Of a DNA stretch of 50,829 nucleotides, positions 14,322 to 41,769 are shown one piece after another. The position numbers were made by a program, and so were the translations under genes. The notes beneath the pieces were generated by a model. It was not told the DNA's origin and searched no databases. It saw only the letters and a program-made list of their open reading frames with translations. Numbering within the stretch: position 1 is the stretch's first letter; every line of letters begins with the position of its first letter. Source of the DNA: Bacteroidales bacterium. GTDB taxonomy: Bacteria > Bacteroidota > Bacteroidia > Bacteroidales > JAGOPY01. The stretch is from contig JAHYJL010000003.1 of the NCBI GenBank assembly GCA_019429045.1, positions 1 to 50,829 on the forward strand, in the 5' to 3' direction.

Positions 14322-14329
14322 TATTTTTG
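14322..14329 (+). promoter_or_regulatory. probable -7 promoter element of the T6SS operon
   Basis: TATTTTTG (TAnnTTTG) about 85 bp upstream of the tssH ATG. Confidence 0.5.
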
Positions 14330-14413
14330 CTAGGCAGGCCAATTAATTATCATATCATCACTGTCGATGATCACTTGATCTTGTGGCAGTTAATGAAATT
14401 AATACTCATTCAC

Positions 14414-16897
14414 ATGGAAGCCGCTAACCAATTTGATCTGACCGACGAGCTAAAAAATGCCATTCATATTGCACAGGCACTGGCCCGTGAAAATGCCCAG
14501 GAAACATTTTCGCCCGGTCACCTGCTCAAAGCCATACTGCATAAGGATGTGGGCCTGATTCCATTACTTGATTCGCTCGGGAAAGATTATTTTTTCATGG
14601 AAGAATGGGCCGATGTGAGAATTGAAAGCTATCCCAAGACTTCAAAGATACCCGAAAACCCCGTTGCAGATGACAAGGTAGTGGCAGTTCTGATGGAGGC
14701 CGATAATATCCGTTTAAAACTATCCAAAGATAAGGCTGATCCGGTTTGCGTATTGATCTCACTGGCCACTGCCGGAGTAGGTTTCACTTTTGAACAGCTA
14801 AAAACCTTCCCATTAAATCCCAATGAGGTGCTGACCGCGGTGATCGAAAAGCTGGACCTCCAGGCAACATTGGGTCAGGCAGATAAGAGAGCAGCAGGGG
14901 ATAAGAAAGATGCTTCGTCCAACGCATTGCTTAAATATTGCATTGATAAGACAGCCGCAGCCCGACAAGGGAAACTCGACCCGGTGATCGGTCGTGACCG
15001 GGAGATCCGGATGATCGCGGAAATCCTGGGCCGGCGATCCAAACCAAATGTCATTATCATCGGTGAACCGGGCGTCGGCAAAACAGCCGTGGTAAACGGT
15101 TTTATACAAGAGGTGGCAAACAACAATTCCGGGAACGTTGCCGGCAGCCAGATCTTTGAACTGGACATGGGCGAACTGATCGCGGGGGCCGCTTATAAAG
15201 GCGAAGTGGAAGACCGCCTTAAAAAGATCATCCGGGAGATCAAGCAATTTGACAAAGCCATCCTGTTCATCGATGAAATCCATGGCCTGATTGACCGTCA
15301 TGGCGGCGCCTCCGGTGCAGCCAACCTGCTCAAACCGGAGCTGGCCAAAGGCGAACTGACCATTATTGGCACCACTTCGTTTGATAATTACAGCAAACAT
15401 ATTGAATCGGATGACGCCTTCAACCGCAGCTTTGAAACCATCAAGCTGGAAGAACCTGACGTGGAAATGACAGCCAGGATGCTGGCCGGCATTATGCCCC
15501 ACTACGAACAGCATCATAATCTGCGGGTCGATCCCGAAGTGATCAAAGAATCCATCCGCCTTTCAAAACGGTATAATAAGGAAAGAAAACTCCCTGATGC
15601 GGCCGTCGACTTGCTTGACCGGACCATGGCCGTTGTCAGGATGACCGGAGAATCTTCCCAGGCCGATATTCAGGAATTGAAAGAGAAATTTGCAGCGCTT
15701 GCAGCCAACAGGGAAAAACTCGAAGAAGTTTCGCTGGTAAAGGAATTACAATGGTTTTACCATTTCATGCGCCATAAATTGAGCCATATCCTGTTCGCCC
15801 AACTGGACGATGAAACAGATGTGATGAAAATGGATTCATCAAAGGAACTCATCAAGCATCTGAAAAACCTGATGGTCAGGCTGGAAGAACTGGCCAAACA
15901 TAAACACGATGCCATTGAGAAGGCTGATGTGGCAGCGGTTATTTCATTCAAAACTGGCATCCCCATCGGCAAGCTACAGACACAGGAGCGGGAAAGGCTG
16001 ATGCACACGGAAGAGCATCTGAAACTAAGGGTGGTCGGGCAGGATCACGCGATCCGCAATATTGCCGAAGCCATTCTTGAATCGCGTTCGGGGCTGAACA
16101 AGCCCGGCCAGCCCATCGGGTCCTTCTTCTTTCTCGGGCCAACGGGCACCGGAAAGACGGAGCTGGCTAAAACCCTGGCTGAATTCCTTTTCCAGGATGA
16201 ATCGGCATTGCTCCGGTTCGATATGTCTGAATTTAAAGAAGAGCACTCTGCCGCCTTGCTTTATGGGGCCCCTCCGGGTTATGTGGGTTACGAAGAAGGC
16301 GGGCTGCTGGTCAACAAAATCAGACAAAAACCCTATGCCGTGGTACTCTTCGACGAGATTGAAAAAGCACACCCATCGGTATTCGATATTTTCCTGCAAA
16401 TCCTGGATGAAGGCAAACTGAGCGACCGGCTCGGGAAAGAGGGCGATTTCTCCAACGCAGTCATTCTGTTCACATCCAACATCGGCAGCGATTTTATAGT
16501 GGAATCCTTTGCGAAAAATATAATCCCCAAATCCACCGAATTGCTGGACATCATGACCCGTTATTTCAGACCTGAATTTTTAGGGAGGCTGACAGAGATC
16601 ATACCCTTCTCCCCGATCACGGAAAAGATGGTCCTGAAGATATTTGAAATTCACCTGAAAGGACTTACAAAGTTACTCGATGTGCAGGGAATACGCCTTG
16701 AAATTACTGATGAGGCCAAACAGAAACTGGCCATGATGGGATTTACACCGAAATACGGTGCAAGGCCCATTGTGGGTGTGATCAGGAACCAGCTTCGAAG
16801 GCCGCTGTCAAAAATGATCATTTCAGGCAAGATCAGCAAAGGAACCCTGGTGAAACTGATTTCAGATGACAAAGGAGAATTGAAATGGGAACCATAA
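14414..16897 (+). CDS. tssH: T6SS ClpV/TssH AAA+ ATPase (subtype iii)
   Basis: Two AAA modules (GEPGVGKT/LFIDEIH; GPTGTGKT/LFDEIEKAH), GAPPGYVGY pore loop; first gene before tssB and tssC. Confidence 0.92.
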   Translation: MEAANQFDLTDELKNAIHIAQALARENAQETFSPGHLLKAILHKDVGLIPLLDSLGKDYFFMEEWADVRIESYPKTSKIPENPVADDKVVAVLMEADNIRLKLSKDKADPVCVLISLATAGVGFTFEQLKTFPLNPNEVLTAVIEKLDLQATLGQADKRAAGDKKDASSNALLKYCIDKTAAARQGKLDPVIGRDREIRMIAEILGRRSKPNVIIIGEPGVGKTAVVNGFIQEVANNNSGNVAGSQIFELDMGELIAGAAYKGEVEDRLKKIIREIKQFDKAILFIDEIHGLIDRHGGASGAANLLKPELAKGELTIIGTTSFDNYSKHIESDDAFNRSFETIKLEEPDVEMTARMLAGIMPHYEQHHNLRVDPEVIKESIRLSKRYNKERKLPDAAVDLLDRTMAVVRMTGESSQADIQELKEKFAALAANREKLEEVSLVKELQWFYHFMRHKLSHILFAQLDDETDVMKMDSSKELIKHLKNLMVRLEELAKHKHDAIEKADVAAVISFKTGIPIGKLQTQERERLMHTEEHLKLRVVGQDHAIRNIAEAILESRSGLNKPGQPIGSFFFLGPTGTGKTELAKTLAEFLFQDESALLRFDMSEFKEEHSAALLYGAPPGYVGYEEGGLLVNKIRQKPYAVVLFDEIEKAHPSVFDIFLQILDEGKLSDRLGKEGDFSNAVILFTSNIGSDFIVESFAKNIIPKSTELLDIMTRYFRPEFLGRLTEIIPFSPITEKMVLKIFEIHLKGLTKLLDVQGIRLEITDEAKQKLAMMGFTPKYGARPIVGVIRNQLRRPLSKMIISGKISKGTLVKLISDDKGELKWEP

Positions 16898-16929
16898 AAA
16901 TTATATATAACCTTTAAAACTATCACATT

Positions 16930-17376
16930 ATGGCAAAAAAGACTGTTATTACACAAGTCCAGGATGTTGAAGTCAATGAATCAGTCATTGAATTTCCTCA
17001 AAACCGTACTTTTCTGACCGAGCAGTTGACTTACGATGAGCCTTCAAAACCGGAAATTGTAAGGAATCTCAAATCGGAAGATGATGTTTTTGAGCATTAC
17101 AAACCAAAGGTGGATGTGGAATTTCAAAACAGCGAAGGGGCGAGTAAAAAAGAGACCCTTTCATTCAAAACCCTGGCTGATTTCGGTGTAAAGGGACTTA
17201 CTGCACAGAGCGCTTTTCTTCAGGAACTGGATATCCAGAAAGAAGAATACCAGAAGATCATCAAGCAAATGAAAAGCAACAAGCAGCTCAGACAGGCTAT
17301 TTCAGACCTGGAAACCAAGCAAGCCTTGCTGAACACGATCCTGGCCCTGCTGAAGGAACTTGAAGCATCCAAGTAG
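16930..17376 (+). CDS. tssB: T6SSiii contractile sheath small subunit
   Basis: PQNRT...EQLT...KPEIV...VFEHYKPKVDVEF pattern of Bacteroidota TssB; position between tssH and tssC. Confidence 0.85.
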   Translation: MAKKTVITQVQDVEVNESVIEFPQNRTFLTEQLTYDEPSKPEIVRNLKSEDDVFEHYKPKVDVEFQNSEGASKKETLSFKTLADFGVKGLTAQSAFLQELDIQKEEYQKIIKQMKSNKQLRQAISDLETKQALLNTILALLKELEASK

Positions 17377-17419
17377 TTTTTAAAAATTAAAGAAAATCAT
17401 CACTAAAAACATTATCGCC

Positions 17420-18805
17420 ATGGCAGATCCGATGAAAGAACATAAGCCTGAAAATTTTAAAGAAAAAATGAAAGAGGAGCTGGGTAAAATAGCCGAACCA
17501 GTCAAACATCTTGAAGAAAGCCTGAAACACCTGGAGAAATACGGTGGGTTCGACCTGATCGAAGGAACGATTGACGGCACCCAGAAACTCAATCCGGAAA
17601 AAAAGGCCACCAAGCAAATATTCCTTTCCGAGACACAGTTCAAAGCCCAGCGGGAGCGGCTGAAAAAAACCCTTGAACTTTGGGCAAGCCTGCTCTCCAA
17701 AGAAGCTTCTGTAGCAGAATATGTGGAAGAATGTGAAAAAGGAGCAGAAATTGCTGATAAAACCCTCAAGGAAAACCTGAAAAAAGCGCTCGAGCAGACC
17801 AAGAACCTGGAACGCTCCTACCGTTCGGTAGCGCTTTTCTTTAAAAATACTGAAAACGATAAGGTAAAGTATGTTGCCATCATGAATGCATCACCCGACC
17901 AACTGAAAGACCTTGACAACTCGAGGTTTATCGATGCAGTGGCAGCAGAATTGAGCCGTAACTACGACCGTCTCTCGCTGAAGAATAATTACAGCCTCGT
18001 GGTTGTCCCGGGTTACCTGGGATCCAAAGCCGTATTAAATAAATGGGGAAAGGCTGCCCATAAAAATAAAGTCCTTATGGTCACTGATTTCAGAAACCTG
18101 GAGGATGTGGAAAGCACCATGGAACTGTTCCAGGAAGAGAGCCTGAATGGTGGGGACGCCCACCTGGCCAATGTCATCATGGCCTGTAACTGGCTTGTTG
18201 GCAGGGGAAAATATGCAGAGGTAGGTGAAGATGAAGATCTTTATGTACCACCTTCCAGTGCATTGGCAGGAAAACTATACAATACTGAGGGGATTCCCAT
18301 CGCACAAGGCGCCGCGGGAAAGAAATTCGGGACATTGAACGAAGTCAGCGGTGCGCGTTATGACCTTAAAAAGTCGGAAATCGCCGCCCTGAACGACCTG
18401 AACCTGATCCCGATGGTCTTTGAAGACAACCGCGTGATGGCTTTCTCCAATAAAACACTGTTCAACGGGAACAATATCGGCTTGCAGGAATACCCGATCG
18501 TCAGGGTGTTCGACTGGGTCGGAAAGGTCTTTATGAACTTCTTCAACGATGTGGCTTTTCAAAAGTTCAACAAATCACTCAGAGACGACATCTGGCAGCA
18601 GATTGTCGATTTTCTGAACGATTACAAGGGGAAACTTTTCGAAGACTATACCTTTGACCGGGATGGCATCCGTCAGGACCCCGTTACCAAGGATATAACG
18701 ATCCAAGTAAATATCAAGCCTTTCTTTGCCGCCAAGAATTTCTACATCAAACTGGAAGGCCACGATGGCCGGGAAGGCAGGGAATGGAACCAGGAAGTAG
18801 ATTGA
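17420..18805 (+). CDS. tssC: T6SSiii contractile sheath large subunit (DUF5458)
   Basis: YGGFD, LERSYRSVALFF, NYDRL...NNYSLVVVPGYLGS, CNWLVGR, PPSSALAG, VRVFDW, PFFAAKNF. Confidence 0.9.
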   Translation: MADPMKEHKPENFKEKMKEELGKIAEPVKHLEESLKHLEKYGGFDLIEGTIDGTQKLNPEKKATKQIFLSETQFKAQRERLKKTLELWASLLSKEASVAEYVEECEKGAEIADKTLKENLKKALEQTKNLERSYRSVALFFKNTENDKVKYVAIMNASPDQLKDLDNSRFIDAVAAELSRNYDRLSLKNNYSLVVVPGYLGSKAVLNKWGKAAHKNKVLMVTDFRNLEDVESTMELFQEESLNGGDAHLANVIMACNWLVGRGKYAEVGEDEDLYVPPSSALAGKLYNTEGIPIAQGAAGKKFGTLNEVSGARYDLKKSEIAALNDLNLIPMVFEDNRVMAFSNKTLFNGNNIGLQEYPIVRVFDWVGKVFMNFFNDVAFQKFNKSLRDDIWQQIVDFLNDYKGKLFEDYTFDRDGIRQDPVTKDITIQVNIKPFFAAKNFYIKLEGHDGREGREWNQEVD

Positions 18806-18861
18806 TCTGTTCTTTTTAAATCATTTATTCACCTATTTATTAATCCTTAATCTTTAAAATT

Positions 18862-19254
18862 ATGTCAGTTTACATCAAAATCGACGGGTTAGCAGACCGT
18901 GAGGTAGTGACCCTGCATTATGACCTGCATCAGGAAACTGATGTGGAAGGAAGGCCATCGGCCATTACACGTGGTGGCAATATCAGTGTAACTACCAAAT
19001 CGCTGAACGATGGCAACTCAGACTTGTTTGAATGGGCCTGTGATCCTTACAGTGCCAAAAAAGGCAAGATTGAATTTGAGAAACGGGATGGCACCAATAT
19101 GAAAACCCTCGAGTTCGAGGATGCATATATGATAAGCTATTCCGAGACTTACAATGCATTGGATGCAAATTCCCAGATGGAAAATTTCATTATTTCGGCC
19201 AAAAAGGTATCCATAGGTGGTGTATTCCATGAAAATCCATGGGCAGAAAAGTAA
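18862..19254 (+). CDS. tssD: T6SS tube protein Hcp/TssD (copy 1)
   Basis: QETDVEGRPS...RGGNI, LFEW, KGKIEF, LEFEDAY..SYSE, ISAKK...H.NPW. Confidence 0.88.
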   Translation: MSVYIKIDGLADREVVTLHYDLHQETDVEGRPSAITRGGNISVTTKSLNDGNSDLFEWACDPYSAKKGKIEFEKRDGTNMKTLEFEDAYMISYSETYNALDANSQMENFIISAKKVSIGGVFHENPWAEK

Positions 19255-19323
19255 TCCCGCTTCCCTTTACGGGATAATGAAGGACTTATCTGTATTATAC
19301 AAGTTAATTAAATTAATTGTTGT

Positions 19324-19731
19324 ATGGTTTTCACCGGGGCTAAATTAGTCGAAGCGAAACTGATTCTGGCAGGTTCTGATCAGCCTATTAAGATATTTTC
19401 GTTTGATTACGGATTTACGCAATACACTGACGAAACCGGCAAGCCAACCGGTTACCCGACCGGGGGTACGATCAATTTTATGATTGAATCCACCCCTGAA
19501 ACGGTACTGATTGACTGGATGCTGGATGCTAAAGCGCTTAAAAACGGTAAGATTGAGATCGGAAATAAAGACAAAGTGATTGAATTTAAGAACGCTGCCT
19601 GCATCCAGTATCATGAATCGTTCAACCATATGGGCGGAGCGCAGCCCATGACGACCAGTTTTACCATTTCGGCAGAAGAAATCAAGGTTGGCGGCGCCCC
19701 TCCGTTTCAGCAAAAAAGGAAAACAGTCTGA
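19324..19731 (+). CDS. tssD: T6SS tube protein Hcp/TssD (copy 2, divergent)
   Basis: QYTDETGKP...GGTINF, DWM, KNGKI, IEFKNAACIQYHESF, FTISAEEI. Confidence 0.85.
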   Translation: MVFTGAKLVEAKLILAGSDQPIKIFSFDYGFTQYTDETGKPTGYPTGGTINFMIESTPETVLIDWMLDAKALKNGKIEIGNKDKVIEFKNAACIQYHESFNHMGGAQPMTTSFTISAEEIKVGGAPPFQQKRKTV

Positions 19732-19803
19732 TCCTGTTTTCTGTCCTTTTGCTAAGAGTCGATCCGCCAACCCATTTGAACACCGAATATAATATTATAA
19801 GGT

Positions 19804-21576
19804 ATGGCCTTAGCACAGAAGGTTAAAGTTTTGGTTGATGGTAAAAATACCATCAATGGCAGGGATGCGGGCGATTTTCTTGACCTGCATCTGCAGCAAA
19901 GCGTTTTCGGGCATCATTCGCTTGAAATTGTCTATCGTCGTGATCATTTTGAAGATGATGGCACATTCATCATGGATAAATCGGACCAGCTCTTCCTGGG
20001 ATGTTCTGTTTCACTTACCATTGAAGGAAGGGAGAATGAAAAGCTGGAATTCGACGGTGTTATCACGGGGGTGAAGGTCCGCAAGATGCATGATGCGCAA
20101 AGCGACACGGTCATCGTGGAAGCATCCAGCCCGGATATCTTTCTGAATGACGGAGAACACTGCAGGACATTTGAGGACAAGACGCTAAAGGCCATTGTCG
20201 ACAAGATCCTCGGTGAATACCAGCTGGACAGCAACAAGGTCAAACCTGAAAATGCCAGCGATGTGCTGTCGTATACCGTTCAATACAAAGAAAGCGCTTT
20301 CGCATTCCTGACAAGGCTGGCTTCCAAAAAGGCCCAGTGGTTTTATTATGATGGCAAGGAAATCATCTTTGGCGCCCGGGCCCAAAAGAAAGTAACGCTC
20401 GAATTTGGCGCCGATCTGTTTAATTTTGATTTCTCCTTGAAACTGGAAGATTTGAATTTCAAATATTTAGCATATGATTACTTTGAAAATAAAGTGATCA
20501 GCAGCGAATCAGGCGATAAGCAGATATCAAACCTTTCCACCAAAGCCAAATATGCCTACGATGTGTCTGAAAAAAAATTCAAGCATGATACGCAAAGCCT
20601 TTACAATCACAGCCTGACCAAATCAAAAGCCCAGGAACACCTCGACTCGCGTGTAAAATTGTTGAAAAGTGCTATGACTGCCGGGTTTATTTCGTGCAGT
20701 GGTTCCAGTGACGATGCTGACCTGGTGGCGGGCTGTGAAATCAATATCATTGAGAACTATGGCCAGGGAGATGATAAAAAACAGGTTGACCATGGTAATT
20801 ATATCATCACCAGCATCAGCCATTCATGTGACAGGACAGGCAACTATCAAAACAGCTTTTCGGCTGTCCCGGCCGAAATTGAAGTACCTCCCTACTCATC
20901 TCCTCATGCCATACCATTCTGCGAAACACAGGCAGCCAAGGTGATAGACAACAACGATCCCGATCAATTGGGAAGGATCCGTGTCCAGTTCATATGGCAA
21001 GAGGAAGAAAACACCATGACCCCCTGGATCAGGCTCGTAACCCCCCATGCCGGGGACCAGAAAGGGTTCTATTTCATACCGGAGATTGGGGAAGAGGTAC
21101 TGGTAGCATTCGAGGGCGGCAACGCCGAAAAGCCATACGTGATCGGCAGCATGTTTCATGGAAAGGCAGCGCCCGACAGCGCCTGGGTAAATGCAGACGA
21201 CGACATAAAAGCCATCCGCACCCGCAGCGGGCATACCATTGAATTCTCCGATAAAGATGGTAGTGAAGAGCTAAAAATCTATGATTACAATAAAGACAAC
21301 TATGTTATCACCCTGCAATCGCATTCCTCCAAAATCAAAATTGAATCAAAAGGAGACATTGAAATGGAGGCTACGGGCGATCTAAAGATAAAAGCTGCCA
21401 ATATAGAGATGGAATCCCAAAGCGACTTTAAGATCAAATCAACCAATGTGAAGGTTGATTCCACGTCACAATATGAAGTAAATGCCATGAATATCAATAA
21501 TAAAGCGAATGCCCAGGTAAAAATTGAAGGTGGGGCCATGATCGAACAAAAAGCCGCTATCATCAAAATAAATTAA
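19804..21576 (+). CDS. vgrG: T6SS spike protein VgrG/TssI
   Basis: VQYKESAFAFLTRLA, DNNDPDQLGRIRVQF, TPWIR, FIPEIGEEVLVAFEGGNAEKP, IRTRSGHTI, beta-helix C-terminus with no toxin extension. Confidence 0.95.
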   Translation: MALAQKVKVLVDGKNTINGRDAGDFLDLHLQQSVFGHHSLEIVYRRDHFEDDGTFIMDKSDQLFLGCSVSLTIEGRENEKLEFDGVITGVKVRKMHDAQSDTVIVEASSPDIFLNDGEHCRTFEDKTLKAIVDKILGEYQLDSNKVKPENASDVLSYTVQYKESAFAFLTRLASKKAQWFYYDGKEIIFGARAQKKVTLEFGADLFNFDFSLKLEDLNFKYLAYDYFENKVISSESGDKQISNLSTKAKYAYDVSEKKFKHDTQSLYNHSLTKSKAQEHLDSRVKLLKSAMTAGFISCSGSSDDADLVAGCEINIIENYGQGDDKKQVDHGNYIITSISHSCDRTGNYQNSFSAVPAEIEVPPYSSPHAIPFCETQAAKVIDNNDPDQLGRIRVQFIWQEEENTMTPWIRLVTPHAGDQKGFYFIPEIGEEVLVAFEGGNAEKPYVIGSMFHGKAAPDSAWVNADDDIKAIRTRSGHTIEFSDKDGSEELKIYDYNKDNYVITLQSHSSKIKIESKGDIEMEATGDLKIKAANIEMESQSDFKIKSTNVKVDSTSQYEVNAMNINNKANAQVKIEGGAMIEQKAAIIKIN

Positions 21577-23294: not shown

Positions 23295-23582
23295 ATGGAA
23301 GAATTGGAAATTGTATTGTTTTACCAGGATACGGAATATTCCATGAAGGTGGAAGATCTGACTAAACCTGTAGTTGATGCTATCAAAGAAATCGTAGAAG
23401 CTTTACAGCTTTCATGGCGGGATGGCGGGGGCAATCCCATTACCTACCACCTCGGCCGTACGACAGGCTCTGAGGAGGAAATACTTAAACCGCGCATAAA
23501 AGGGAAAGACCAGACATTATATGACTATAACATCAGGAGCGGCGACAGGCTTATCCTGATCAAGGAAGTGATCGCCGGATAA
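23295..23582 (+). CDS. ubiquitin-like beta-grasp protein (YukD/EsaB-like) ending in Gly
   Basis: 95 aa; QTLYDYNIRSGDRLIL closely parallels ubiquitin RTLSDYNIQKESTLHL; C-terminus ...EVIAG. Confidence 0.85.
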   Translation: MEELEIVLFYQDTEYSMKVEDLTKPVVDAIKEIVEALQLSWRDGGGNPITYHLGRTTGSEEEILKPRIKGKDQTLYDYNIRSGDRLILIKEVIAG

Positions 23583-23610
23583 GTTTTAACGAAAAATAAA
23601 TATCAAGAAG

Positions 23611-24369
23611 ATGGCAAAAATCGTCATTTCAAAAGGAGAAGAAAAAATTAACAACATTTTTGAGGGTTATAAGAAAACCGAGTTATCACCCAGGGGAAGA
23701 AAATTGTTGAAAGAATGGAGAAAGATCGACTTTCTCTGTGAAAACAGCGACGTGATCAAGTACATCATCAGAAAGCGGAACAGGGAGGGGTTGCCGGTTG
23801 AGTATGAGATCATTTATCATCTGAACAGCATCATCGGTGTGAACGAGCCCGTCGAAGCGACAAGGGAAGTGAGCGGGGAAAAGATATCCAGGCCCTGGCG
23901 GCAGCCCGTTTATGGTAAGGAACACCACCTGAGCATCGTTTTACCCAACAATTACCCCGGAGCGTTCGGAGGAAACCCTGAATTTGTCATGTTGTCAGAC
24001 ACCTGGCACCCCAATATCCGCGCGACGGGTAAATTCAAGGGCAGGATATGCCTTAACGACAGGGATCTTGGCGTTGCCTGCGGCCTGGATGAAAGGATCA
24101 TCCGGGTAGGTAAATACCTGCAATACCAAACCTATTGGGCCATCGACAGCTACCCGTGGCCGGAAGACCAGGTTGTTGCAGAATGGATAAGGGAAGAAGC
24201 TGAACCTGCCGGCTGGGTGAATGTCAACGAAGGGATCTATACTGATAATTCGAAACTGTACAAAACACCACTACTGTTTCATAAAAACTACCTGCAGGAG
24301 ATCCAGGATATTGGTTCACCCGGAGGTAAAAACACCGGGAACGCTCCTATTACTTTAAAAATGAATTAG
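23611..24369 (+). CDS. ubiquitin-conjugating enzyme E2 (UBC fold)
   Basis: RKLLKEW helix, LSIVLPNNYP...NPEF, WHPNI...GRICL with candidate catalytic Cys147. Confidence 0.9.
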   Translation: MAKIVISKGEEKINNIFEGYKKTELSPRGRKLLKEWRKIDFLCENSDVIKYIIRKRNREGLPVEYEIIYHLNSIIGVNEPVEATREVSGEKISRPWRQPVYGKEHHLSIVLPNNYPGAFGGNPEFVMLSDTWHPNIRATGKFKGRICLNDRDLGVACGLDERIIRVGKYLQYQTYWAIDSYPWPEDQVVAEWIREEAEPAGWVNVNEGIYTDNSKLYKTPLLFHKNYLQEIQDIGSPGGKNTGNAPITLKMN

Positions 24370-24419: not shown

Positions 24420-25826
24420 ATGAAAATATTTATTGTAATCCTGGTTTCACTGCTTTCCTTCTCCCTGATGGCCCAGGAAGCCGAAGTGCTGATGGTGGGG
24501 GAAAACCTGCTCGGATCCAAAGACATCGCATACAGCAGAAAAATTACGATCAGCGTCACGCCAAATGTAACCTATAAAATAGATGAAAATAAAAATGAGT
24601 TCCTGATCATTCATTTCGCGACAAAATGGTATCAGAACAATGAAATATTTGTTCCAAAGACGGAAAAGATATATATGATCAACGATCCGGAATATTTTAT
24701 GCAGAACTATGGCAGATCAAACAGCAATTGGAAGGTTCCCAAGCGTGTTCAGGATTTAATCTCAAATACCTTTGAGCTATCACCAGGCGCCATTTTTGAC
24801 TATACATTGGAAGAATTACCCGATATTTTCATTAATAAAACAAAACCAATTACTGTCTCCATTACGAAATACAAGAACGAAACCATCGTTCTCGTCGCCT
24901 CTTTTTACATGGGAACAGAGAAGTCTTTTTTATTCTCAGGGTTCACGGTCGATCAGAAAGCCGAACCGCTCATCTGGAAATTCAAGCTGCCGCCGCCGTC
25001 AGACAGGCCCGAATGTGGTGAGAAATACGATTACTATGTGTCCCGCATCAATAAATTACAAGCCAAACAAAAACTGCAGCAACTGGGTGAAATATTCAAG
25101 ACAGGGCTGAATAAATCAGAGCAGGCACTTAGAAGTGAGAAACAGGAACTGGAATCGATCAAAATGCTTAACCAGAGCCTGCAGGATCTGAATAGTGAAA
25201 TTACAGATGATGTTTCTAAAATGGGTTGTGAAAACCTTAACAGTATCAAAACCAATATTGAAGGATACCTTAAATCGATATCTTCAAACGAGATTGATAT
25301 CAGCTTCAGGTTAAGGGATCTCAATAAGAAACTGGATTCTCTCGGCCAAATTGGAGTGATGACGGTAAAAAGACGTGAATCATTAAGTGACAATAGTATT
25401 GTCATTAGGGAAATATATCACGGCTTAAAGAAATTACAATGGGAATTCAATCAGACGAATGCTTTCGACAGTATTCTGCTGGCAGATATCAAAGCCAGGC
25501 TGGATAATATTTACAAGATCGAAGATGAGAATTTCCAGGGGATGATACAAAACAAGGCCATCACATCTGAAGTTGCCTTGCTTAAAGATGAATTTGACAA
25601 TTATTATAATGCTTCTATAATCATTATCAACAATATCAGAGCCGAAAGCAGGGGAGAAAAAACGACCGGCAGTTTTGCTGACCATTCTGCAAAGGCAAAA
25701 AGGAAGAAGTTTTCGCCCTGGATTATTGTTTCCGGTCTGATTATCGTACTGACGATCATTGGGATAAAATTCCGTGAGCCGATCAAGCGGGCATTATCGT
25801 TGAAAAAGAAGGTAAAATATAAATAA
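24420..25826 (+). CDS. single-pass membrane protein with periplasmic beta domain and coiled coil
   Basis: Signal peptide, helical heptad-rich middle, C-terminal TM (PWIIVSGLIIVLTIIGI) and basic tail; ectodomain resembles that of the next gene. Confidence 0.75.
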   Translation: MKIFIVILVSLLSFSLMAQEAEVLMVGENLLGSKDIAYSRKITISVTPNVTYKIDENKNEFLIIHFATKWYQNNEIFVPKTEKIYMINDPEYFMQNYGRSNSNWKVPKRVQDLISNTFELSPGAIFDYTLEELPDIFINKTKPITVSITKYKNETIVLVASFYMGTEKSFLFSGFTVDQKAEPLIWKFKLPPPSDRPECGEKYDYYVSRINKLQAKQKLQQLGEIFKTGLNKSEQALRSEKQELESIKMLNQSLQDLNSEITDDVSKMGCENLNSIKTNIEGYLKSISSNEIDISFRLRDLNKKLDSLGQIGVMTVKRRESLSDNSIVIREIYHGLKKLQWEFNQTNAFDSILLADIKARLDNIYKIEDENFQGMIQNKAITSEVALLKDEFDNYYNASIIIINNIRAESRGEKTTGSFADHSAKAKRKKFSPWIIVSGLIIVLTIIGIKFREPIKRALSLKKKVKYK

Positions 25827-25837
25827 CAGTCATATTG

Positions 25838-28783
25838 ATGATAAAATATTTTCATTTATCTTTTTTGCTCTTCCTGGTCACCGGACCGGCATGGGCACAG
25901 CAGGAGATCGGTCCAGGCAAAACAAACCTGCAAAAACAACAGCTCATTTTTGCCAAAACCATTTGTGATATAACACCACAGGTTCAGTATGACACAAACA
26001 AACGGCATGAATTGACCATTAAATTCTATGCTGACTGGAAAAATAAAGATGGAGAACCGTTTCAAAACAACGAGCATTATTTGTACCTGATAGACAATTT
26101 TGACAAGTGGATGATTGGTATTAAGGAAAATGATAAATACTTGATCAATTTTTCCCCCAGACAAAAACAGTCAATTCTACAGGCCACTGATCAAATCACA
26201 GAAAATGGAATGAGTATCAAGCCGGTCTACTCAAATGGATATCTTGAACTGATAAATGTGTCGCAACCGCTGAAACTCAGGATTGACGGAAAGGATGGTG
26301 ACCTGATAACCCTGAATTTATTTTTCACCTATGTCACTGCTAAACCGAAAAACAAGAATATCGAAGATATTCCCCGGCAGCTTGCATGGTCATTTTCGCT
26401 ACCAGGTAAAACACCCGTTCCCGATGAACATGTGGCCATAATGCAGGAAGAAACAGAAATAGCCGAACAGGAAATCAAAGACACAATAAAGAAAGAGAAG
26501 GAGAAGGAGATAATCGCTCCCAGACCTGAGCCCCCGGTCAAAGAAAAGGTAAAGAAAGAAGATACTTCGCGAAAGGATATTGAAAATAAAATTGATTCAC
26601 TGGCGAAAAAATATAATGTGATATATCATGAACTGGCTTCACAGTTCGAATCAATGAAGGGAATAATCAACCCGGGGATGGCTGATATCGGAAACCGCAT
26701 CAGACAGAACGATGAGAGGTTTTCAATGGTTCAGGAAATGTTCTCCGTTAAAGATCAGCTTTCGGAGGAGTTGTTTGAGAATATGTCACTGGGGCTAACT
26801 TCCTGTAAGTCCGATAATCAATATTGCGACAGTTCCAATACTGTGTATCTGACAACCATCCGCACTTTCAAATCAAAGATCGAACAGGAAATCAGCCATT
26901 TGCTATCTGAATTTCAGAACATTGACAGAAGGACCATGCCACTCAAAGGGACAGAGATCCAAAATAAGCTGAAAGATCTTTTCAGTGAAGTCTCCGTCAT
27001 TGAAGCCACGCTGGAAAAATTACAAACATCAATCAATGCCCAGAATAAAGACATTTACAGTCTTTTTATGGAACTCGAGGGAAAGGTGGAGTTGGCGGAA
27101 AAGATCAGTGCATTTGACCTGGCATTCAATCAGGTTAACCTCCAGCTTGAAGGCCTGGTAGTGGATTACGACAATCTCAAAAGTAATTTTGAAAACAAGA
27201 AATTCAGCAAAGGATATTTCAAGTGGGTCAGGCAGTCTTATTTAAAAAAGGCTGATAATATTATTAATTCTTATGCTGTCATAAATTCTACATTTGATTC
27301 CTTATCACATAGCAAAAGGAGCTCTTTCCAGCAATATGATCTTGATCCGCTGATTGAGTCCCAGCAGGGATTTGAAAAAGAAAGGTCTGGCTTTGTCAAC
27401 CGTGTTGAAATATTGAAAGCCAGCATCATAGAGTCGGAATACGAACCTTTTCCTTTTTTATACACGGCCCTGGCTATTATATTCATCTCTATTCTCATCT
27501 TCGGGACTTATGTGTACCTGATGGCATTACGAAGAAAAAAACTGAAAATCAGCCCGATTTTGTCAACATCACGACCTGCTAAAAATGCCATAAAAATACA
27601 GCCCACTATGGTTACAGCATCAAACAAGGGAAAAGGGCTGGCGGATTATCTGAAACCCAACAAGGACCGCTACCTTGAGTTGAACATGTCGCATGAATGG
27701 GCGGATAGTTGCGTCAAAAATGTCTATTTTGAGCGGGACTGCATTATCAAGACCTATCGATTCTTCGAAGATTCCATTCATTCGGTCGGAACGACCGAGC
27801 ACTCCGCCAATGAAACCGGTGGTTATCTGATTGGCCAGTGGGACTACAATCCTGATGAACCTGATAAATACGACGTATCGCTGGAAGATTTCATCGAACC
27901 GGGAGATGATGCTTCTTTTTCAAAGTATCAATTGAATTTCGGCGCCAAAATAGGGGTGAAACTGCAATCTGTGCTCGAGAACATGCGGCAAAAATCGAAC
28001 CGCGATTTTGTCATGACGGCCTGGTTTCACAGTCACCCGGGATTGAAAATATTTCTTTCGGATTACGATCTCCAGGTTCAGAATGATTTTGCAGGAACCC
28101 AGAACAAGCACCGGATGCTGGCTTTGGTACTGGATCCTTATACACCTGCCTGGGATCTGGGTATTTTTCCTTACAAGGCCAATGGCGATATGAACAACGC
28201 CGCTGATTCCATACGCTTTTTCAGTTTCGATTCCATTTATCACTGGGCGCTTACCCCTCCCCGCCGGGAAATAGTTCAGTTTGATAACTATTTTGCCCAC
28301 GACATCTCCAGGGCTTATTCCGGGACCTCTATCCGGAATATCCTGTTCAGCCTCCCCGGCATCCTGGAGATCAAACGTTTTATTGAGAATGCAAAACTCC
28401 AAACCGGCAAAAACTTCACAACTGGCTTATTTTCAGGCTTTCAACATAACCCCGGATCACATTATGCCGACCTGGCCATTGAACAGGTTTTAAGTGAGGA
28501 AGACTGGCAACAGATCAGCAAGCCTGATGAAAAGAAGATCATAGGGGCTATTTTCTTCCTGGCTTCTGTTTCGGAAGATAATGCAAAAGCGCTGAATGAT
28601 AAAATTATACAGTTAACGGAGACATACGGGAAGAACCTGGTCATCGCTTTATTTTCTCCTGCTGATGAAGGTCTTTCCCTTTTACCTGCTGACATTATCA
28701 CCAGGTCGTTGATCTCAGCACCCGACAAGTCAGCACGCGTTCCATTGCCGGAACTGATTGAATGGACCAGAAAACGCAAGTAA
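25838..28783 (+). CDS. membrane-anchored JAB/JAMM (MPN+) metallo-isopeptidase with a second degenerate MPN repeat
   Basis: Signal peptide, coiled coil, TM near 27450-27530, then ETGGYLIG...AWFHSHPGLKIFLSDYD (E...HxH...S..D) and ALVLDP. Confidence 0.88.
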   Translation: MIKYFHLSFLLFLVTGPAWAQQEIGPGKTNLQKQQLIFAKTICDITPQVQYDTNKRHELTIKFYADWKNKDGEPFQNNEHYLYLIDNFDKWMIGIKENDKYLINFSPRQKQSILQATDQITENGMSIKPVYSNGYLELINVSQPLKLRIDGKDGDLITLNLFFTYVTAKPKNKNIEDIPRQLAWSFSLPGKTPVPDEHVAIMQEETEIAEQEIKDTIKKEKEKEIIAPRPEPPVKEKVKKEDTSRKDIENKIDSLAKKYNVIYHELASQFESMKGIINPGMADIGNRIRQNDERFSMVQEMFSVKDQLSEELFENMSLGLTSCKSDNQYCDSSNTVYLTTIRTFKSKIEQEISHLLSEFQNIDRRTMPLKGTEIQNKLKDLFSEVSVIEATLEKLQTSINAQNKDIYSLFMELEGKVELAEKISAFDLAFNQVNLQLEGLVVDYDNLKSNFENKKFSKGYFKWVRQSYLKKADNIINSYAVINSTFDSLSHSKRSSFQQYDLDPLIESQQGFEKERSGFVNRVEILKASIIESEYEPFPFLYTALAIIFISILIFGTYVYLMALRRKKLKISPILSTSRPAKNAIKIQPTMVTASNKGKGLADYLKPNKDRYLELNMSHEWADSCVKNVYFERDCIIKTYRFFEDSIHSVGTTEHSANETGGYLIGQWDYNPDEPDKYDVSLEDFIEPGDDASFSKYQLNFGAKIGVKLQSVLENMRQKSNRDFVMTAWFHSHPGLKIFLSDYDLQVQNDFAGTQNKHRMLALVLDPYTPAWDLGIFPYKANGDMNNAADSIRFFSFDSIYHWALTPPRREIVQFDNYFAHDISRAYSGTSIRNILFSLPGILEIKRFIENAKLQTGKNFTTGLFSGFQHNPGSHYADLAIEQVLSEEDWQQISKPDEKKIIGAIFFLASVSEDNAKALNDKIIQLTETYGKNLVIALFSPADEGLSLLPADIITRSLISAPDKSARVPLPELIEWTRKRK

Positions 28784-28801: not shown

Positions 28802-31291
28802 ATGAAACTGCTCAATCCCTGTCATATGCAACTACATCTATTAATGTCGCACATTTTCCGGATGATTAAATTACCGGGACTGGTTTTGCTGGTATTTCTG
28901 ATTACTTTCATTACGCATGCACAAAAGCGTGCAGATGCCGATCTGCAAATCATCGACATTCAGATGAAGCCTGAAAACCTGGCCAAGCTAAGTGATACGA
29001 TGACCGTTAAGTTCAACCTGATGAGACCGGGAGGGACTGAAGATGCAGACAGAATTCTGGAATTGTCACCAGGGGATTCCATGAGGGTTTCTGTGAAGGA
29101 ATTCCTCGGCAGAAAGGAGGAGAGGATAAAACCCGTATTTATCCCGGGCAGCCTGAAAAAGTTAAGGGATCATGGTAAAATGAGATCTGAAATCCCGGAA
29201 GACTATTACATTTCATTGCTGATTGACAAAAGCGGTTCTATCAATCAGCATGACATGGATAAAATAAAATCGGCTATTTATGAGCTGGCCGGGATGGTTA
29301 AAACCGGCAATTTATTTTATTCCTGGTTTGATGAAGATATTTCCGAAAGCAGGGTGGTTACCCAGGCCAACATAAACGATCTCGATTTCCATGTTTCCAG
29401 CACCGGCAGTTCCTGCATGTACAATGCCATTTTCACGAAAATGATGGAATTTGATTCCACGAAAGATGTGCCCAATCTTCAGTATGAGGGGGCTTACAGG
29501 CGAAACAGGGCTGTTGAGATGGCGCCGGATGGTAATAAATTCCTGGTTATCATTACAGATGGCCGTAATGACATACAACAGAACCCAAAATATCACAACA
29601 CCCTGTTCAGGGTCATCCGCGAACCGGAACTCATCAATACCGCCGAATTATACAGAAACAAATTATTCATTTACGCTATCAGTTTCGGCGGGGAATTGCT
29701 GGATGAAGCTTTCCTGGAGATGATAACGGCCGCCAGCGGCAATCGTTATGGCAATATACTGACCAGTCCCGACAATATTCTGGAGGACTTTAACAGCCTT
29801 GGTAAAAAAATCGCGGAGGAAAAATGGGACTATGAAATTCGTTTAAGGTATGAAAATCCAAAAAAATACAGGGGAGAGACACGTACCCTGCATTTAGAAA
29901 TCAACTCCTATAAACCGGATCTCTTCGTTGCATACGGTCAGGCAACCTATGGGGAAGGTTACGGCAACTCCCTTTACCCGATGACCATTGGTGAGCCAAA
30001 ACGCCAGGTCATGGTCATGCTCGGAGGCCTTGTCGCAGGGATCATCATCTTTCTGCTGGTGATGTTCATTATACAATTGATCATCCCTTTGATCAAGAAT
30101 AAGATATTTGTCATAAAATATGTCAAGAGATATAAACCACGGGAGCACGAATTATTCAAAGAATGCCAGTTTTGCGGAGATCCGCTGAATCCCGGCGACA
30201 AGGTGGTGGTCAAATGCAAGCATGTCGTTCACCATTTATGCTGGAAAGAATATGGACATATGTGCCCGGAATATGGGCAAAATTGCAACGATGGCCAGGA
30301 AAATTTCTTTGACATTACAGATCCCTTCTCCAAAAAGAATAAGATCTATTACCTGAGCTGGGTGCTATATGGCATGCTGGGCGGTTTCCTGTCCTGGTTG
30401 CTATATGTGGCACTGATCAAGTGGGAACAGGTCTTTGCATTCAGCATATGGCTAACCGAGTGGATCAGGCCAACCATTACAGAAAGCAACCTCGGTTCTT
30501 TCAAGTTTAAGATAGCGCCATTCCTGATCGTGGGCACGCTGATGGGATTCTTTCTTACCGCGTTCTTCTCCTTTGTGGAGGAATACCGCCATAAAAACCT
30601 GATGATTTACGGCAAGATACTGCTCAGAAGTATCCTGGGCGGGGTTGCCGGATTTGTCGCGTTTCTATTGGGAAGCATTATCCTGATCCTGATCAACAGG
30701 CCCGCTACAGTCTATTTCGATTGGATCCCGTGGATATTCTTCGGAGCCGCCATTGGCCTGGTCATGTCCATTAAAACCACTATTGTCTGGAAGCACGGGC
30801 TTATCGGCGGATTGATCTCCATCATCTTTTGTTTTATCGTTATTTATGCCTTTATCGGGGAGCTTGAGGAAAATGCCATCCTGGTAGGTATTATGATATA
30901 CGCGGCAGGATTAGGTGTATCGATTGCCACCATCAGGCTGCAGTCAGAGCACTTCTTCCTGAAGATACTGCAGGGGAAAAAGAATCAGGATATCATCCCG
31001 GTCCATAAGTGGATGAGTTCCTCCGGAGGCCATAATGAAGTGTATCTGGGCAGAAGTTTCGCCTGCGAGATTCAGATGAACTGGGAAAAAAACAATGAAG
31101 AGATCGCACAAAAGCATTCCAAGATGTATATCAATACCAGGGGGGTGCCGGTTATCACCAACCTGGAAATCGGCAAGACAACCAATTTCAACGAACGGTT
31201 TGATCTGGATACCGGAAAAGAATACGAGCTTTACAATGGCGTGAGGTTTAAAATCGGACAAACTGTATTTCAATATATTGAGACAGATTAG
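28802..31291 (+). CDS. vWA - TM - RING finger - multi-TM - FHA-like protein (candidate membrane E3 ligase)
   Basis: MIDAS DKSGS and IITDG; RING-like CQFC-x13-CKHVVHHLCW-x6-CP-x5-C (30164-30286); several TM helices; C-terminal LGRS...H...ELYNGVRFKIG. Start may be 28862. Confidence 0.82.
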   Translation: MKLLNPCHMQLHLLMSHIFRMIKLPGLVLLVFLITFITHAQKRADADLQIIDIQMKPENLAKLSDTMTVKFNLMRPGGTEDADRILELSPGDSMRVSVKEFLGRKEERIKPVFIPGSLKKLRDHGKMRSEIPEDYYISLLIDKSGSINQHDMDKIKSAIYELAGMVKTGNLFYSWFDEDISESRVVTQANINDLDFHVSSTGSSCMYNAIFTKMMEFDSTKDVPNLQYEGAYRRNRAVEMAPDGNKFLVIITDGRNDIQQNPKYHNTLFRVIREPELINTAELYRNKLFIYAISFGGELLDEAFLEMITAASGNRYGNILTSPDNILEDFNSLGKKIAEEKWDYEIRLRYENPKKYRGETRTLHLEINSYKPDLFVAYGQATYGEGYGNSLYPMTIGEPKRQVMVMLGGLVAGIIIFLLVMFIIQLIIPLIKNKIFVIKYVKRYKPREHELFKECQFCGDPLNPGDKVVVKCKHVVHHLCWKEYGHMCPEYGQNCNDGQENFFDITDPFSKKNKIYYLSWVLYGMLGGFLSWLLYVALIKWEQVFAFSIWLTEWIRPTITESNLGSFKFKIAPFLIVGTLMGFFLTAFFSFVEEYRHKNLMIYGKILLRSILGGVAGFVAFLLGSIILILINRPATVYFDWIPWIFFGAAIGLVMSIKTTIVWKHGLIGGLISIIFCFIVIYAFIGELEENAILVGIMIYAAGLGVSIATIRLQSEHFFLKILQGKKNQDIIPVHKWMSSSGGHNEVYLGRSFACEIQMNWEKNNEEIAQKHSKMYINTRGVPVITNLEIGKTTNFNERFDLDTGKEYELYNGVRFKIGQTVFQYIETD

Positions 31292-31312: not shown

Positions 31313-32170
31313 ATGAGAAAAGCATTCATAACATCGCTCCTGACGATTGTCGTCACCCTCGGTCTTTCGGCTTCCGACCTGAAAGGTTACCCCAGGAAAT
31401 CCCTGTTTGTGAACCTGTCAGCTGATTATTCACGGTTGTATAATAAAACGATTTATAACGACTCGCCATGGAACGCCCAGGGGGGGCTTGGTTACAGTTT
31501 CGAAGCAGGGTACCTGATGCGGTTGCGAAAATCAGTGAGCCTCGGTTTCGGCGCAGGCCTGAGTTCATACTACAGTGAAATCAAGATGGATTCATATCAA
31601 ACAACATATCCAACTCTTGATGTTGACGGGGATAGTTATACCGAGTTCATCCAGGCAAATGGATTGGTGGAATCAACCCGGATCACCACATTAGACATAC
31701 CGGTATTTCTTGAACTTGGCAATGCCAACACCAGCAAGGTCAGCTATTATGTCAGGCTTGGAGTAAAGATATCAACGCCTGTCGCGTATAATTTCACTCA
31801 TTCAGGCAGCATGTCGGTCAGTGGAAACTACGCGCAATATTTTGTCCGGCTGGAAGGCATCCCGGAGCTGGGTTTTGTCGATAATGCCCCGGTAATCAAA
31901 TCATCGGAATATGATCTCAACCCGGTGAACCTCTCGGTATTGTTGGCCGGCGGCATCACCATTCCTGTTTCGGATTACATCATATTCAAGCTGGGGGCCG
32001 ATCTCAACTATGGCCTTATGAATATTTCATCTTATGAGCAGGAAGTGTCAAAGGATCCCGGTTTTATCAATATTTACAATAACCTGCTGACAGAGCCGAA
32101 CAGTAAAACAATCTGGCAGTCTGTAGGGTTTGAATTCGGGATCATATACATCCTGAAATCCATTTATTGA
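31313..32170 (+). CDS. outer-membrane beta-barrel protein (PorT/OMP_b-brl-like)
   Basis: Signal peptide, LDIPVFLE, DLNYGLMNI, terminal SVGFEFGIIY strand. Confidence 0.75.
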   Translation: MRKAFITSLLTIVVTLGLSASDLKGYPRKSLFVNLSADYSRLYNKTIYNDSPWNAQGGLGYSFEAGYLMRLRKSVSLGFGAGLSSYYSEIKMDSYQTTYPTLDVDGDSYTEFIQANGLVESTRITTLDIPVFLELGNANTSKVSYYVRLGVKISTPVAYNFTHSGSMSVSGNYAQYFVRLEGIPELGFVDNAPVIKSSEYDLNPVNLSVLLAGGITIPVSDYIIFKLGADLNYGLMNISSYEQEVSKDPGFINIYNNLLTEPNSKTIWQSVGFEFGIIYILKSIY

Positions 32171-35449: not shown

Positions 35450-35928
35450 TGAGCTTCAAAAATTACAAAATACCGCTCGATTTCAGCGAGATCATGGATG
35501 CCGGCAGGGCTGAACAGGATCACAGACGGTCTGCACATCTGTCGATTAAAAGAACTGACTCCCTGAAAAAGTCAATTGATGAAAATATAGAACTTGTATT
35601 GACGACACACCACGGGGAGCACAAGCACAATAAGGATTACGGTTTTATTTTATGGGAGCGCGAATTTGAAAATATTGAGATTGAGAAATTCAACACCCAT
35701 AACAACCCGAAGCAGGGCATAGAACTGATGTTACGAAAGGCGCTGACCAAATACGAGCCCCGCCTGAAAAATATCAATGTCGAGATCCTGTTCATTTACA
35801 AGAAAACCTTCAAAGGCAAGCGCATCAAATATTTTGTGGAACTTACCGTAAAGGGGGCCATTGCGAACAAGCTGGAGGAACCTTACGAAAAATCATTTCA
35901 GTTCACCATGGGGCCTTTATTAAAGTAG
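35449..35928 (+). CDS. tssE: T6SS baseplate gp25-like subunit TssE
   Basis: YKIPLDF, SIDENIELVLTT..GE...YG..LWE, YEPRLKNI; TGATG stop/start overlap with tssK. Confidence 0.88.
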   Translation: MSFKNYKIPLDFSEIMDAGRAEQDHRRSAHLSIKRTDSLKKSIDENIELVLTTHHGEHKHNKDYGFILWEREFENIEIEKFNTHNNPKQGIELMLRKALTKYEPRLKNINVEILFIYKKTFKGKRIKYFVELTVKGAIANKLEEPYEKSFQFTMGPLLK

Positions 35929-35955
35929 TAACAGGGAAGATCAATAAAGATTGTA

Positions 35956-41757: not shown

Positions 41758-41769
41758 AGATGGAAGAGT

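Follow-up and report, generated by a model that had tools for sequence, protein, structure and literature searches.

Within a window of 50,829 nucleotides, the whole stretch of a Bacteroidales contig that was analysed, a gene for a small ubiquitin-like protein (Ubl) is followed directly by a gene for an enzyme of the ubiquitin-conjugating type (E2), and we consider it likely that these two supply the modifier and the E2 to a complete, reversible ubiquitin-type cascade that forms an integral part of a type VI secretion system (T6SS) of Bacteroidota and acts at the cytoplasmic face of its envelope complex. A candidate activating enzyme (E1), a RING protein as candidate ligase (E3) and an Rpn11-like JAB/JAMM peptidase as candidate remover are encoded in the same block. 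This full set, in which E3 and remover are joined to envelope-spanning proteins, is fixed in the T6SS locus across 80 loci of Bacteroidales, and the location of the Ubl/E2 pair in a T6SS gene cluster is the main point of interest. The evidence is drawn from sequence, fold, conservation, synteny and predicted topology; all of the catalytic motifs are kept, from which the enzymes of the cascade appear to be active, and the arrangement as a whole suggests that protein tagging helps to build or control the T6SS. Complete cascades of E1, E2, RING and deubiquitinase have been regarded as a hallmark of eukaryotes and archaea, and the known bacterial systems for Ubl conjugation serve in phage defence. 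Full-text searching, with subscription journals mostly outside its reach, found no literature linking a ubiquitin-type cascade to the Bacteroidota T6SS.

Results

The modifier ends on a conserved glycine

The sequence of the Ubl contains ...QTLYDYNIRSGDRLILIKEVIAG at its C terminus with the stop codon TAA directly after, and the protein thus ends straight after Ala-Gly with no propeptide. A protein search with the Ubl returned 33 candidates, of which 30 were relatives; two truncated ones (77 and 61 residues) were left out and the remaining 28 were aligned with the Ubl of the window, giving 29 rows. The terminal ...KEVIAG is the exact protein end in 27 of these rows, and the other two carry short tails past IAG, +F and +FFI. 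We also scanned for related loci with one genome per species, which gave 130 pattern matches and 118 confirmed relatives, of which the best 80 were kept; retention of motifs, here and below, is counted over rows that are orthologues with complete open reading frames (ORFs) in these related loci. A glycine stands immediately before the stop codon in 77 of the 78 loci with a match to the Ubl (76 IAG and 1 IPG), the exception (L002) being an odd, truncated ORF of 74 residues that ends in KP. Identity to the Ubl of the window is only 29-47% in most of the related loci. The glycine and stop thus persist in a protein whose remainder is down to ∼30-45% identity, which is not easily explained unless chemistry takes place at the C terminus.

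The structure model of the Ubl (predicted local distance difference test score, pLDDT, 89.9) has the ubiquitin-like beta-grasp fold. Foldseek with this model returned ubiquitin variants, the ubiquitin of Caldiarchaeum (6fno, 6fj7), SUMO, EccD and a Ubl from a bacterial defence system (8tyx, 8tyz), and VIA-align gave Z scores of ∼11 for talin F0, the UBL domain of USP15, ISG15, the Ubl domain of EccD5 (11.1) and ubiquitin variants.

The adjacent gene encodes an HPN-type E2

The E2 begins 28 nucleotides after the Ubl. A scan for terminator-like sites on the forward strand between 21000 and 28147 found none, and a sigma-70 promoter scan is uninformative for the phylum Bacteroidota. The E2 contains ...LPNNYPGAFGGNPEFVMLSDTWHPNIRATGKFKGRICL..., which places the catalytic cysteine at residue 147. 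A search of 5.8 billion proteins gave 361 candidates and 41 relatives, mostly from Bacteroidales assemblies, 11 of which carry a precomputed UQ_con (PF00179) label. In an alignment of the window protein with 23 of the 41 relatives, Trp-132, His-133, Pro-134, Asn-135 and Cys-147 are invariant (24/24), as is most of the LPNNYP stretch at residues 111-116. A family profile built from the same 24 sequences matched UBE2K in the PDB (E = 7.7e-6) with the HPN motif and the cysteine aligned, such that WHPNI...GRICL of the E2 lies opposite WHPNI...GAICL of UBE2K and the Cys-Leu pair is in register. Over the related loci WHPN and Cys-147 are retained in 79 of 81 rows, and at least one of the two remaining rows is a mis-extracted ORF of three residues. 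An AlphaFold model (pLDDT 78.8, with low confidence at residues 1-13 and 226-252) found solely E2s of the UBC fold in Foldseek (E ∼1e-5, probability 1.0), and the top 50 rows from VIA-align were likewise all E2s (Z 11.2-12.2, 130-141 residues aligned over residues 25-211).

An initial annotation, made from the letters alone, had placed both ORFs on the forward strand, and its coordinates, motifs and numbering, including Cys-147, were correct. Its description of the Ubl as encoded already mature is borne out by the IAG-stop in the window and by the wider retention of this ending, and its description of the neighbour as a canonical HPN E2 agrees with the fold, the UBE2K profile alignment and the retention of the motif. 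The structural check that it proposed, Foldseek on predicted structures, came out in the same sense, the Ubl leading to ubiquitin-like beta-grasps and the E2 to UBC E2s alone.

The family to which this E2 belongs is wider than the Bacteroidales set, with 314 representatives of its profile at E ≤ 1e-3, and in some members of far greater length the E2 domain is N-terminal (P0073, 962 residues; P0078, 629; P0082, 531; P0116, 789).

An E1 whose adenylation site would accept the Ubl tail

The candidate E1 has a GxGxxG loop at residues 38-43, Asp-132, a zinc motif formed by Cys-172, Cys-175, Cys-267 and His-270, and a candidate catalytic cysteine at 191, all of which are kept in 69 of 69 rows; its C-terminal domain of ∼130 residues is also conserved and may be a UFD. 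Its fold in Pfam is that of ThiF/MoeB, and its NCBIfam matches, to ThiF and MoeB models, are below threshold. The best match in the PDB was the active adenylation domain of UBA1 (4.6e-26), followed by MoeB (2.9e-21) and ThiF (7.3e-17).

We modelled the E1 together with the Ubl and obtained a complex score of 0.67, compared with 0.00 for the best control; 116 of 157 solved complexes attain this mark, as do 2 of 215 mismatched pairs. At least 92% of the contacts were shared across three runs, with a partner pLDDT of at least 83. In the model the Ubl tail (residues 89-95) contacts residues 38, 40-43 and 130-134 of the E1, which form the adenylation site, and the prediction thereby supports this site as the place where the Ubl tail would be received.

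Candidate ligase and remover are parts of envelope proteins

The JAB domain is the cytoplasmic half of a 982-residue protein for which a hydropathy scan predicts a periplasmic N-terminal half and a single transmembrane (TM) helix at residues 545-563. All 76 of 76 rows retain the residues of the JAMM motif, Glu-660, His-732-Ser-733-His-734, Ser-742 and Asp-745. The best PDB match of the domain is the Rpn11 homologue of Caldiarchaeum (8.9e-7), followed by yeast Rpn11 (3.2e-6) and CSN5. Given that nearly all of the Ubls lack a propeptide, deconjugation would be the natural role of the JAB enzyme, as had been proposed from the sequence at the outset, and the Rpn11-like best match and the complete JAMM motif in every row speak for that proposal; trimming may persist in a few members, since two close homologues of the Ubl have short tails.

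An 829-residue protein with eight predicted hydrophobic segments contains the RING, at residues 455-495. By hydropathy this protein has a periplasmic vWA domain (138-324), a TM helix (410-428), the RING on the cytoplasmic side, six further TM helices (521-711) and a cytoplasmic C terminus. The eight RING-H2-like ligands (Cys-455, Cys-458, Cys-472, His-474, His-477, Cys-480, Cys-488 and Cys-495) are all kept in 74 of 74 rows, and the window protein has a weak Pfam match to Prok-RING_1 (E = 5.3e-3). The C terminus is FHA-like: a distant orthologue from another order (G344) scores 34.3 bits with the Pfam FHA model, over the threshold, and for the window protein an atlas score of 0.88 gives a lead, whereas Pfam finds no FHA match on it even at E ≤ 5.

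Between the E2 and the JAB protein lies a 468-residue envelope protein that ends in a lysine-rich cytoplasmic tail of 19 residues by the hydropathy scan, and whose periplasmic domain is paralogous to that of the 982-residue JAB protein (BLASTP E = 8e-5). In the complete genome of Bacteroides hominis, the position between E2 and JAB is taken by a 391-residue protein (L086:3373-4548) with a weak, sub-threshold match (E = 2.8e-3) to Dsc3_C, one of the subunits of a membrane-bound E3 complex in eukaryotes.

The cassette lies between T6SS genes

All genes from 14327 to 38962 run in the forward direction (Table 1). The genes upstream of the cassette are assigned by Pfam, with E-values of 1.9e-170 for TssC, 1e-33 and 5e-32 for the two Hcp proteins and 4.5e-25 and 9.1e-22 for the domains of VgrG. 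After a repeat protein with a sorting domain of the type IX secretion system (T9SS), the order is Ubl, E2, 468-residue envelope protein, 982-residue JAB protein, 829-residue RING protein, barrel protein, E1, 317-residue protein, TssK, TssE and TssF.

Table 1. Positions of the cassette genes and of the surrounding T6SS features in the window (aa, amino acids)
Feature	Position	Strand	Description
ClpV, TssB, TssC, two Hcp genes, VgrG	14327..21576	+	5' of the cassette; Pfam
T9SS-sorted Ig/SprB-repeat protein	21578-23251	+	directly between VgrG and Ubl; found in 6/80 loci
Ubl	23295..23582	+	95-aa ubiquitin-like beta-grasp protein, ends ...IAG then stop
E2	23611..24369	+	252-aa UBC-fold enzyme; LPNNYP 111-116, W132-H133-P134-N135, Cys147
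Envelope protein	24420..25826	+	468 aa; signal peptide, periplasmic domain, TM 431-449; no Pfam family
JAB/JAMM protein	25835..28783	+	982 aa, membrane-anchored; Rpn11-like domain
vWA-RING-6TM protein	28802..31291	+	829-aa inner-membrane protein
Outer-membrane beta-barrel protein	31313..32170	+	285 aa; matched in 8/80 loci
E1	32197..33402	+	401-aa ThiF-fold adenylating enzyme
317-aa soluble protein	33371..34324	+	probable baseplate TssG; matched in 63/80 loci
TssK, TssE, TssF	34364..37803	+	baseplate genes 3' of the cassette
289-aa ORF	38093-38962	+	after TssF; no Pfam family
PAAR protein and DUF4123 adaptor	41101-42330	-	in T6SS locus
Second protein with T9SS C-terminal sorting domain	42368-42796	-	in T6SS locus

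With matches in so few loci, the barrel protein is probably not a core part of the cassette. The 317-residue protein was considered as a cassette member and dropped, the atlas indicating TssG: its feature score to Bacteroidota TssG clusters is 0.96 and it is probably this baseplate subunit, and the Pfam TssG model gave no match in 26 aligned sequences, the window protein and 25 orthologues. If this is right, the 289-residue ORF that follows TssF has no assignment. Neither a kinase nor a phosphatase turned up in the window ORFs that were scanned.

Away from the T6SS genes, the window encodes on the reverse strand at 10392-11875 an aeRF1-like release-factor homologue (baeRF family 3, E = 2.5e-42), directly upstream of an S30AE ribosome hibernation factor, and on the forward strand at 47539-48759 a full-length serpin (E = 4.1e-102), a class of protein that is uncommon in bacteria.

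Related loci and the absence of TssN

The 80 related loci are nearly all from Bacteroidales (Prevotella, Muribaculaceae, Bacteroidaceae and Alistipes), with a few bins that carry other labels, and cultured carriers such as Xylanibacter muris and B. hominis are included. With tblastn, the window proteins were matched in 78 loci for the Ubl, 75 for the JAB protein, 74 for the RING protein and 71 for the E1, and the upstream genes in 59 for VgrG, 50 for Hcp, 43 for TssC and 27 for ClpV, with contig ends and the 10-kb size of the flanks limiting the upstream counts. In the complete genome of B. hominis the locus starts with ClpV, continues with the cassette and goes on to TssK, TssE and TssF, the order being that of the window.

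After TssF, the B. hominis locus has peptidoglycan-binding and glucosaminidase genes, together with genes for two Ser/Thr kinases, for a PP2C phosphatase and for a two-component pair of the sigma-54 type. The kinases, the PP2C phosphatase, a hybrid histidine kinase and the sigma-54 activator (L086:16848-18173; L087:1654-3153 and 4958-5839) have no counterparts in the window. This set of genes hints at phospho-control that would act via the FHA-like C terminus of the RING protein.

According to the available parts of two papers, the membrane complex of T6SS subtype iii is formed by TssN-O-P-Q-R, tssN and tssP are nearly ubiquitous in the subtype, and TssR has a vWA domain (PMC10781749, PMC4714493); the first also describes a cytoplasmic ubiquitin-like domain of TssN, proposed to dock the baseplate (PMC10781749). 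TssN, the sole membrane-complex gene that was sought (TssO, TssP, TssQ and TssR were not searched by name), gave no match to its model (PF17555) in the genome of the window, which is 94% complete in 239 contigs, and was absent from the matches in all five other carrier genomes, one of them complete. BLASTP of the 317- and 829-residue proteins against TssN of a canonical locus likewise gave no match. A weak TssN match in one genome (G051) was discarded as a DsbD-like protein. Among 201 genomes drawn evenly from the order, strong matches to the TssN model were found in two, both with TssC and both without this E2; TssC was present in three and the E2 in two, the genome of the window and a 700-contig assembly (G015) in which TssC was not found. 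These numbers, small as they are, fit TssN and the cassette being two alternative envelope solutions.

The cassette is also found outside this type of T6SS

A search for the E2 across the phylum, in a sample of 401 genomes, found it in three: that of the window and two complete genomes of one genus from another order (G344 and G526). In G344 (L095, C65:103000-122900) the order by Pfam is STAND NTPase, E1, Ubl, E2, JAB protein and a vWA...FHA protein, and tblastn gave the same gene order in G526 (C11). A PAAR gene and a toxin with the core of an extracellular contractile injection system (eCIS) adjoin the cassette in G344, with an ion channel also beside it, and in each of the two genomes a phage-sheath-like gene lies on the same contig as the cassette, at distances of ∼20 and 45 kb. 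The cassette may thus be tied to contractile injection systems more broadly.

Discussion

A proposed cycle of tagging and release

Taken together, the domains would provide for a complete cycle. The Ubl would be made in an active form with a free C-terminal Gly-95, which the E1, as judged from the complex model, would adenylate. The E1 probably then takes the Ubl onto its own Cys-191, from which it would move to Cys-147 of the E2. The RING, on a cytoplasmic loop of the 829-residue protein, would bring the charged E2 to a target and promote transfer of the Ubl to a lysine, a step in which Asn-135 of the HPN motif would assist. The Rpn11-like JAB domain, held at the same face of the membrane by the 982-residue protein, would strip the tag again and so make the mark reversible. 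With E3 and remover fused to envelope-spanning proteins and tssN not found, the likeliest targets are membrane or baseplate components of the T6SS, and control of T6SS assembly, firing or recycling is the most likely role.

A more specific scheme, which we put forward as speculative and on balance unlikely, would make reversible tagging the switch of the contractile secretion machine. Here the free Ubl would have replaced the built-in beta-grasp hub of TssN; its attachment by the membrane-embedded RING ligase at the cytoplasmic face of the envelope complex, where the lysine-rich tails of the 468- and 982-residue paralogues could serve as acceptors, would license baseplate docking or firing, and removal by the tethered Rpn11-like peptidase would reset the system. 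If this were true, no ubiquitin-like modification would have been known before to run a bacterial nanomachine, and the system would be a bacterial counterpart to the polytopic membrane RING ligases of eukaryotes. Tagging of the machine by the cascade, in whatever form, would amount to a new control principle for secretion systems, would explain the envelope anchoring of T6SS loci that have no tssN, and would offer a tractable bacterial model for cycles of membrane RING ligases and deubiquitinases. A modifier that is already mature and ends in Ala-Gly makes reconstitution in vitro simple.

Points against the cascade and alternative explanations

Several observations weigh against a conjugation cascade that serves this T6SS. 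Thioester transfer, lysine chemistry, the steps from E2 to E3 to lysine, the substrate and the role in the machine are all matters that we infer. The Pfam scores of the window proteins are below the gathering thresholds for UQ_con (E = 5.5e-3, 16.8 against 27 bits), JAB (17.1 against 22.5 bits) and zf-RING_2 (17.5 against 27.3 bits); the distant orthologues from G344 exceed the thresholds for the E2 (35.4 bits) and the JAB domain (34 bits). Solved complexes of E1 and Ubl exist, so the success of our complex model may reflect mere likeness to them and not binding. The Ubl tail is Ala-Gly and not the Gly-Gly of ubiquitin, SUMO, NEDD8, ThiS and MoaD; modifiers with a single glycine are known in Atg8, Atg12 and Ufm1. 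A TssC-type sheath gene was not found in either G344 or G526, and the presence of the cassette in these two genomes means that its tie to this type of T6SS is not universal. The top VIA-align matches of the Ubl are tied, such that structure does not distinguish a ubiquitin from an EccD beta-grasp. Its only Pfam match, finally, is to YukD (E = 1.3e-3, 19.9 bits, below the threshold of 27; 1.3e-5 in the orthologue from G344), and YukD is reported not to be conjugated, the gene neighbourhoods listed for it in the same source naming no E1, E2, RING or JAB (PMC1779556).

The last two points could be read to mean that the Ubl serves structure or assembly without covalent attachment, in the manner of YukD/EsaB, EccD and the TssN beta-grasp, with E1, E2, RING and JAB acting elsewhere or vestigial. 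Besides the YukD match and the tie of the EccD5 domain with ubiquitin, this explanation can call on the proposed baseplate-docking role of the ubiquitin-like domain in TssN, as given in the accessible text (PMC10781749), and on a paper that, by its title, has a ubiquitin-like protein controlling assembly of the type VIIb secretion system (PMC12637312). Against it stand the terminal glycine, kept in 77 of 78 loci as the remainder of the Ubl diverges and difficult to account for without C-terminal chemistry; the retention of every catalytic motif, by which the enzymes are not vestigial; and the complex model, in which the tail of the Ubl lies inside the active site of the E1. Assignment of the Ubl to the YukD/EsaB class also misses the Pfam threshold, and the context of the locus is T6SS rather than the type VII secretion system (T7SS). 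We regard this explanation as very improbable. That the Ubl is instead a sulfur carrier like ThiS or MoaD, which the E1 would thiocarboxylate in the making of cofactors or thionucleosides, was the refutation named by the initial annotation, and it fails on several grounds even though the E1 has the ThiF/MoeB fold with sub-threshold NCBIfam matches to both and the Ubl ends in glycine. The genome has a separate ThiF gene with ThiS directly after it on another contig (C224), which argues against such a role for the Ubl, and a ThiS search of the whole genome gave matches on two contigs (C224 and C226) that do not include the Ubl of the window. Pfam found no rhodanese, on the E1 or elsewhere in the locus, and no sulfur-insertion domain there; E2, RING and Rpn11-like JAB have no role in sulfur transfer; and UBA1 outscores both MoeB and ThiF as a match for the E1. 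A sulfur carrier is therefore close to negligible as an explanation.

Two further explanations grant the conjugation chemistry and give it a different purpose. The cassette could be an anti-phage Ubl system of the Bil, Bub or CBASS-Cap2/Cap3 type that has come to lie in T6SS loci by chance, and there are generic PADLOC matches of the E1 to E1-E2 models (best 1.8e-15) and of the JAB protein to JAB models (3.6e-6), along with the resemblance of the Ubl model to the defence-system Ubl in 8tyx and 8tyz. However, PADLOC-DB 2.0.0 of 2023, from which newer systems may be missing, gave no match for the Ubl, for the E2 or for the RING protein; throughout the related loci the cassette keeps its place after VgrG and before the baseplate genes; and its E3 and JAB are fused to envelope proteins that span into the periplasm. 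As the searched carriers also have no tssN, a structural role fits better than a passenger island, and we hold a defence function to be highly improbable. The chance is greater, if still low, that the cascade tags cargo, such that effectors, Hcp or VgrG would be marked to be loaded or checked for quality, or that the Ubl itself is delivered into prey. The cassette comes after VgrG with the T9SS-sorted Ig-repeat protein between them, PAAR and DUF4123 adaptor genes are present at the locus, and in the other order a PAAR gene and the eCIS-core toxin adjoin the cassette. A ligase and a remover that are both tethered in the membrane would suit a fixed site in the envelope better than soluble cargo, although cargo does cross that site. 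Tagging at the cytoplasmic face of the envelope complex is the reading that we continue to prefer.

Comparison with known systems

Bacterial cascades of this composition have reportedly been anticipated. Burroughs, Iyer and Aravind (Mol Biosyst 2011) are reported to have predicted in silico bacterial RING E3s that work with E1, E2, JAB and Ubl, and the same analysis is said to have predicted E2s with a eukaryote-type oxyanion hole, E1s that carry a UFD at the C terminus, and YukD-like Ubls that become conjugated. Post-translational control of a T6SS has a reported precedent as well, in that the H1-T6SS of Pseudomonas aeruginosa is said to be governed by threonine phosphorylation through PpkA, PppA and Fha1. 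The likeness to our locus lies in control of a T6SS after translation at the cytoplasmic face of the membrane complex and in the FHA domain on the RING protein, whereas the mark proposed here is a ubiquitin-like protein and not a phosphate.

As with YukD/EsaB and EccD of type VII systems, a small beta-grasp protein is encoded in a secretion locus; unlike in the case of YukD, the glycine terminus and the enzymes are conserved here. With the T6SS subtype iii of Bacteroidota (GA1-GA3), the locus has ClpV, TssB, TssC, Hcp, VgrG, TssK, TssE and TssF in common, and it shares a vWA domain facing the periplasm, as in TssR, and a ubiquitin-fold element, as in the cytoplasmic domain of TssN, as these are described in print (PMC10781749, PMC4714493). 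It differs from the canonical subtype in that no TssN was matched in the genome of the window or in any of the five other carriers, and in that the ubiquitin-fold element is a free, activatable protein that comes together with a dedicated E1, E2, E3 and remover. In the two papers that define the GA1-GA3 architectures, the words ubiquitin, ThiF, MoeB and JAB do not occur.

Of the systems that have been tested, the closest is the operon of 'Candidatus Caldiarchaeum subterraneum', which resembles our cassette in its five kinds of protein: the modifier has the beta-grasp fold, the E1 that of ThiF and the E2 that of UBC, the E3 is a RING protein and the peptidase is an Rpn11-like JAMM enzyme. The resemblance extends to structure, the JAB domain of the window having the Caldiarchaeum peptidase as its best PDB match and the Ubl model matching the Caldiarchaeum ubiquitin. 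By the available text of the source, the Caldiarchaeum cascade has been reconstituted in vitro, and its ubiquitin carries after Gly-Gly a propeptide of nine residues that is cut by the Rpn11 homologue, which also deconjugates (PMC5654768). The Caldiarchaeum modifier is thus a precursor, whereas the Ubl of the window is made in its final form, and the Caldiarchaeum RING is a small protein according to the same partial text (PMC5654768), whereas here RING and JAMM are domains of envelope-spanning proteins of 829 and 982 residues. Unlike the Caldiarchaeum operon, the cassette described here lies within the locus of a secretion system.

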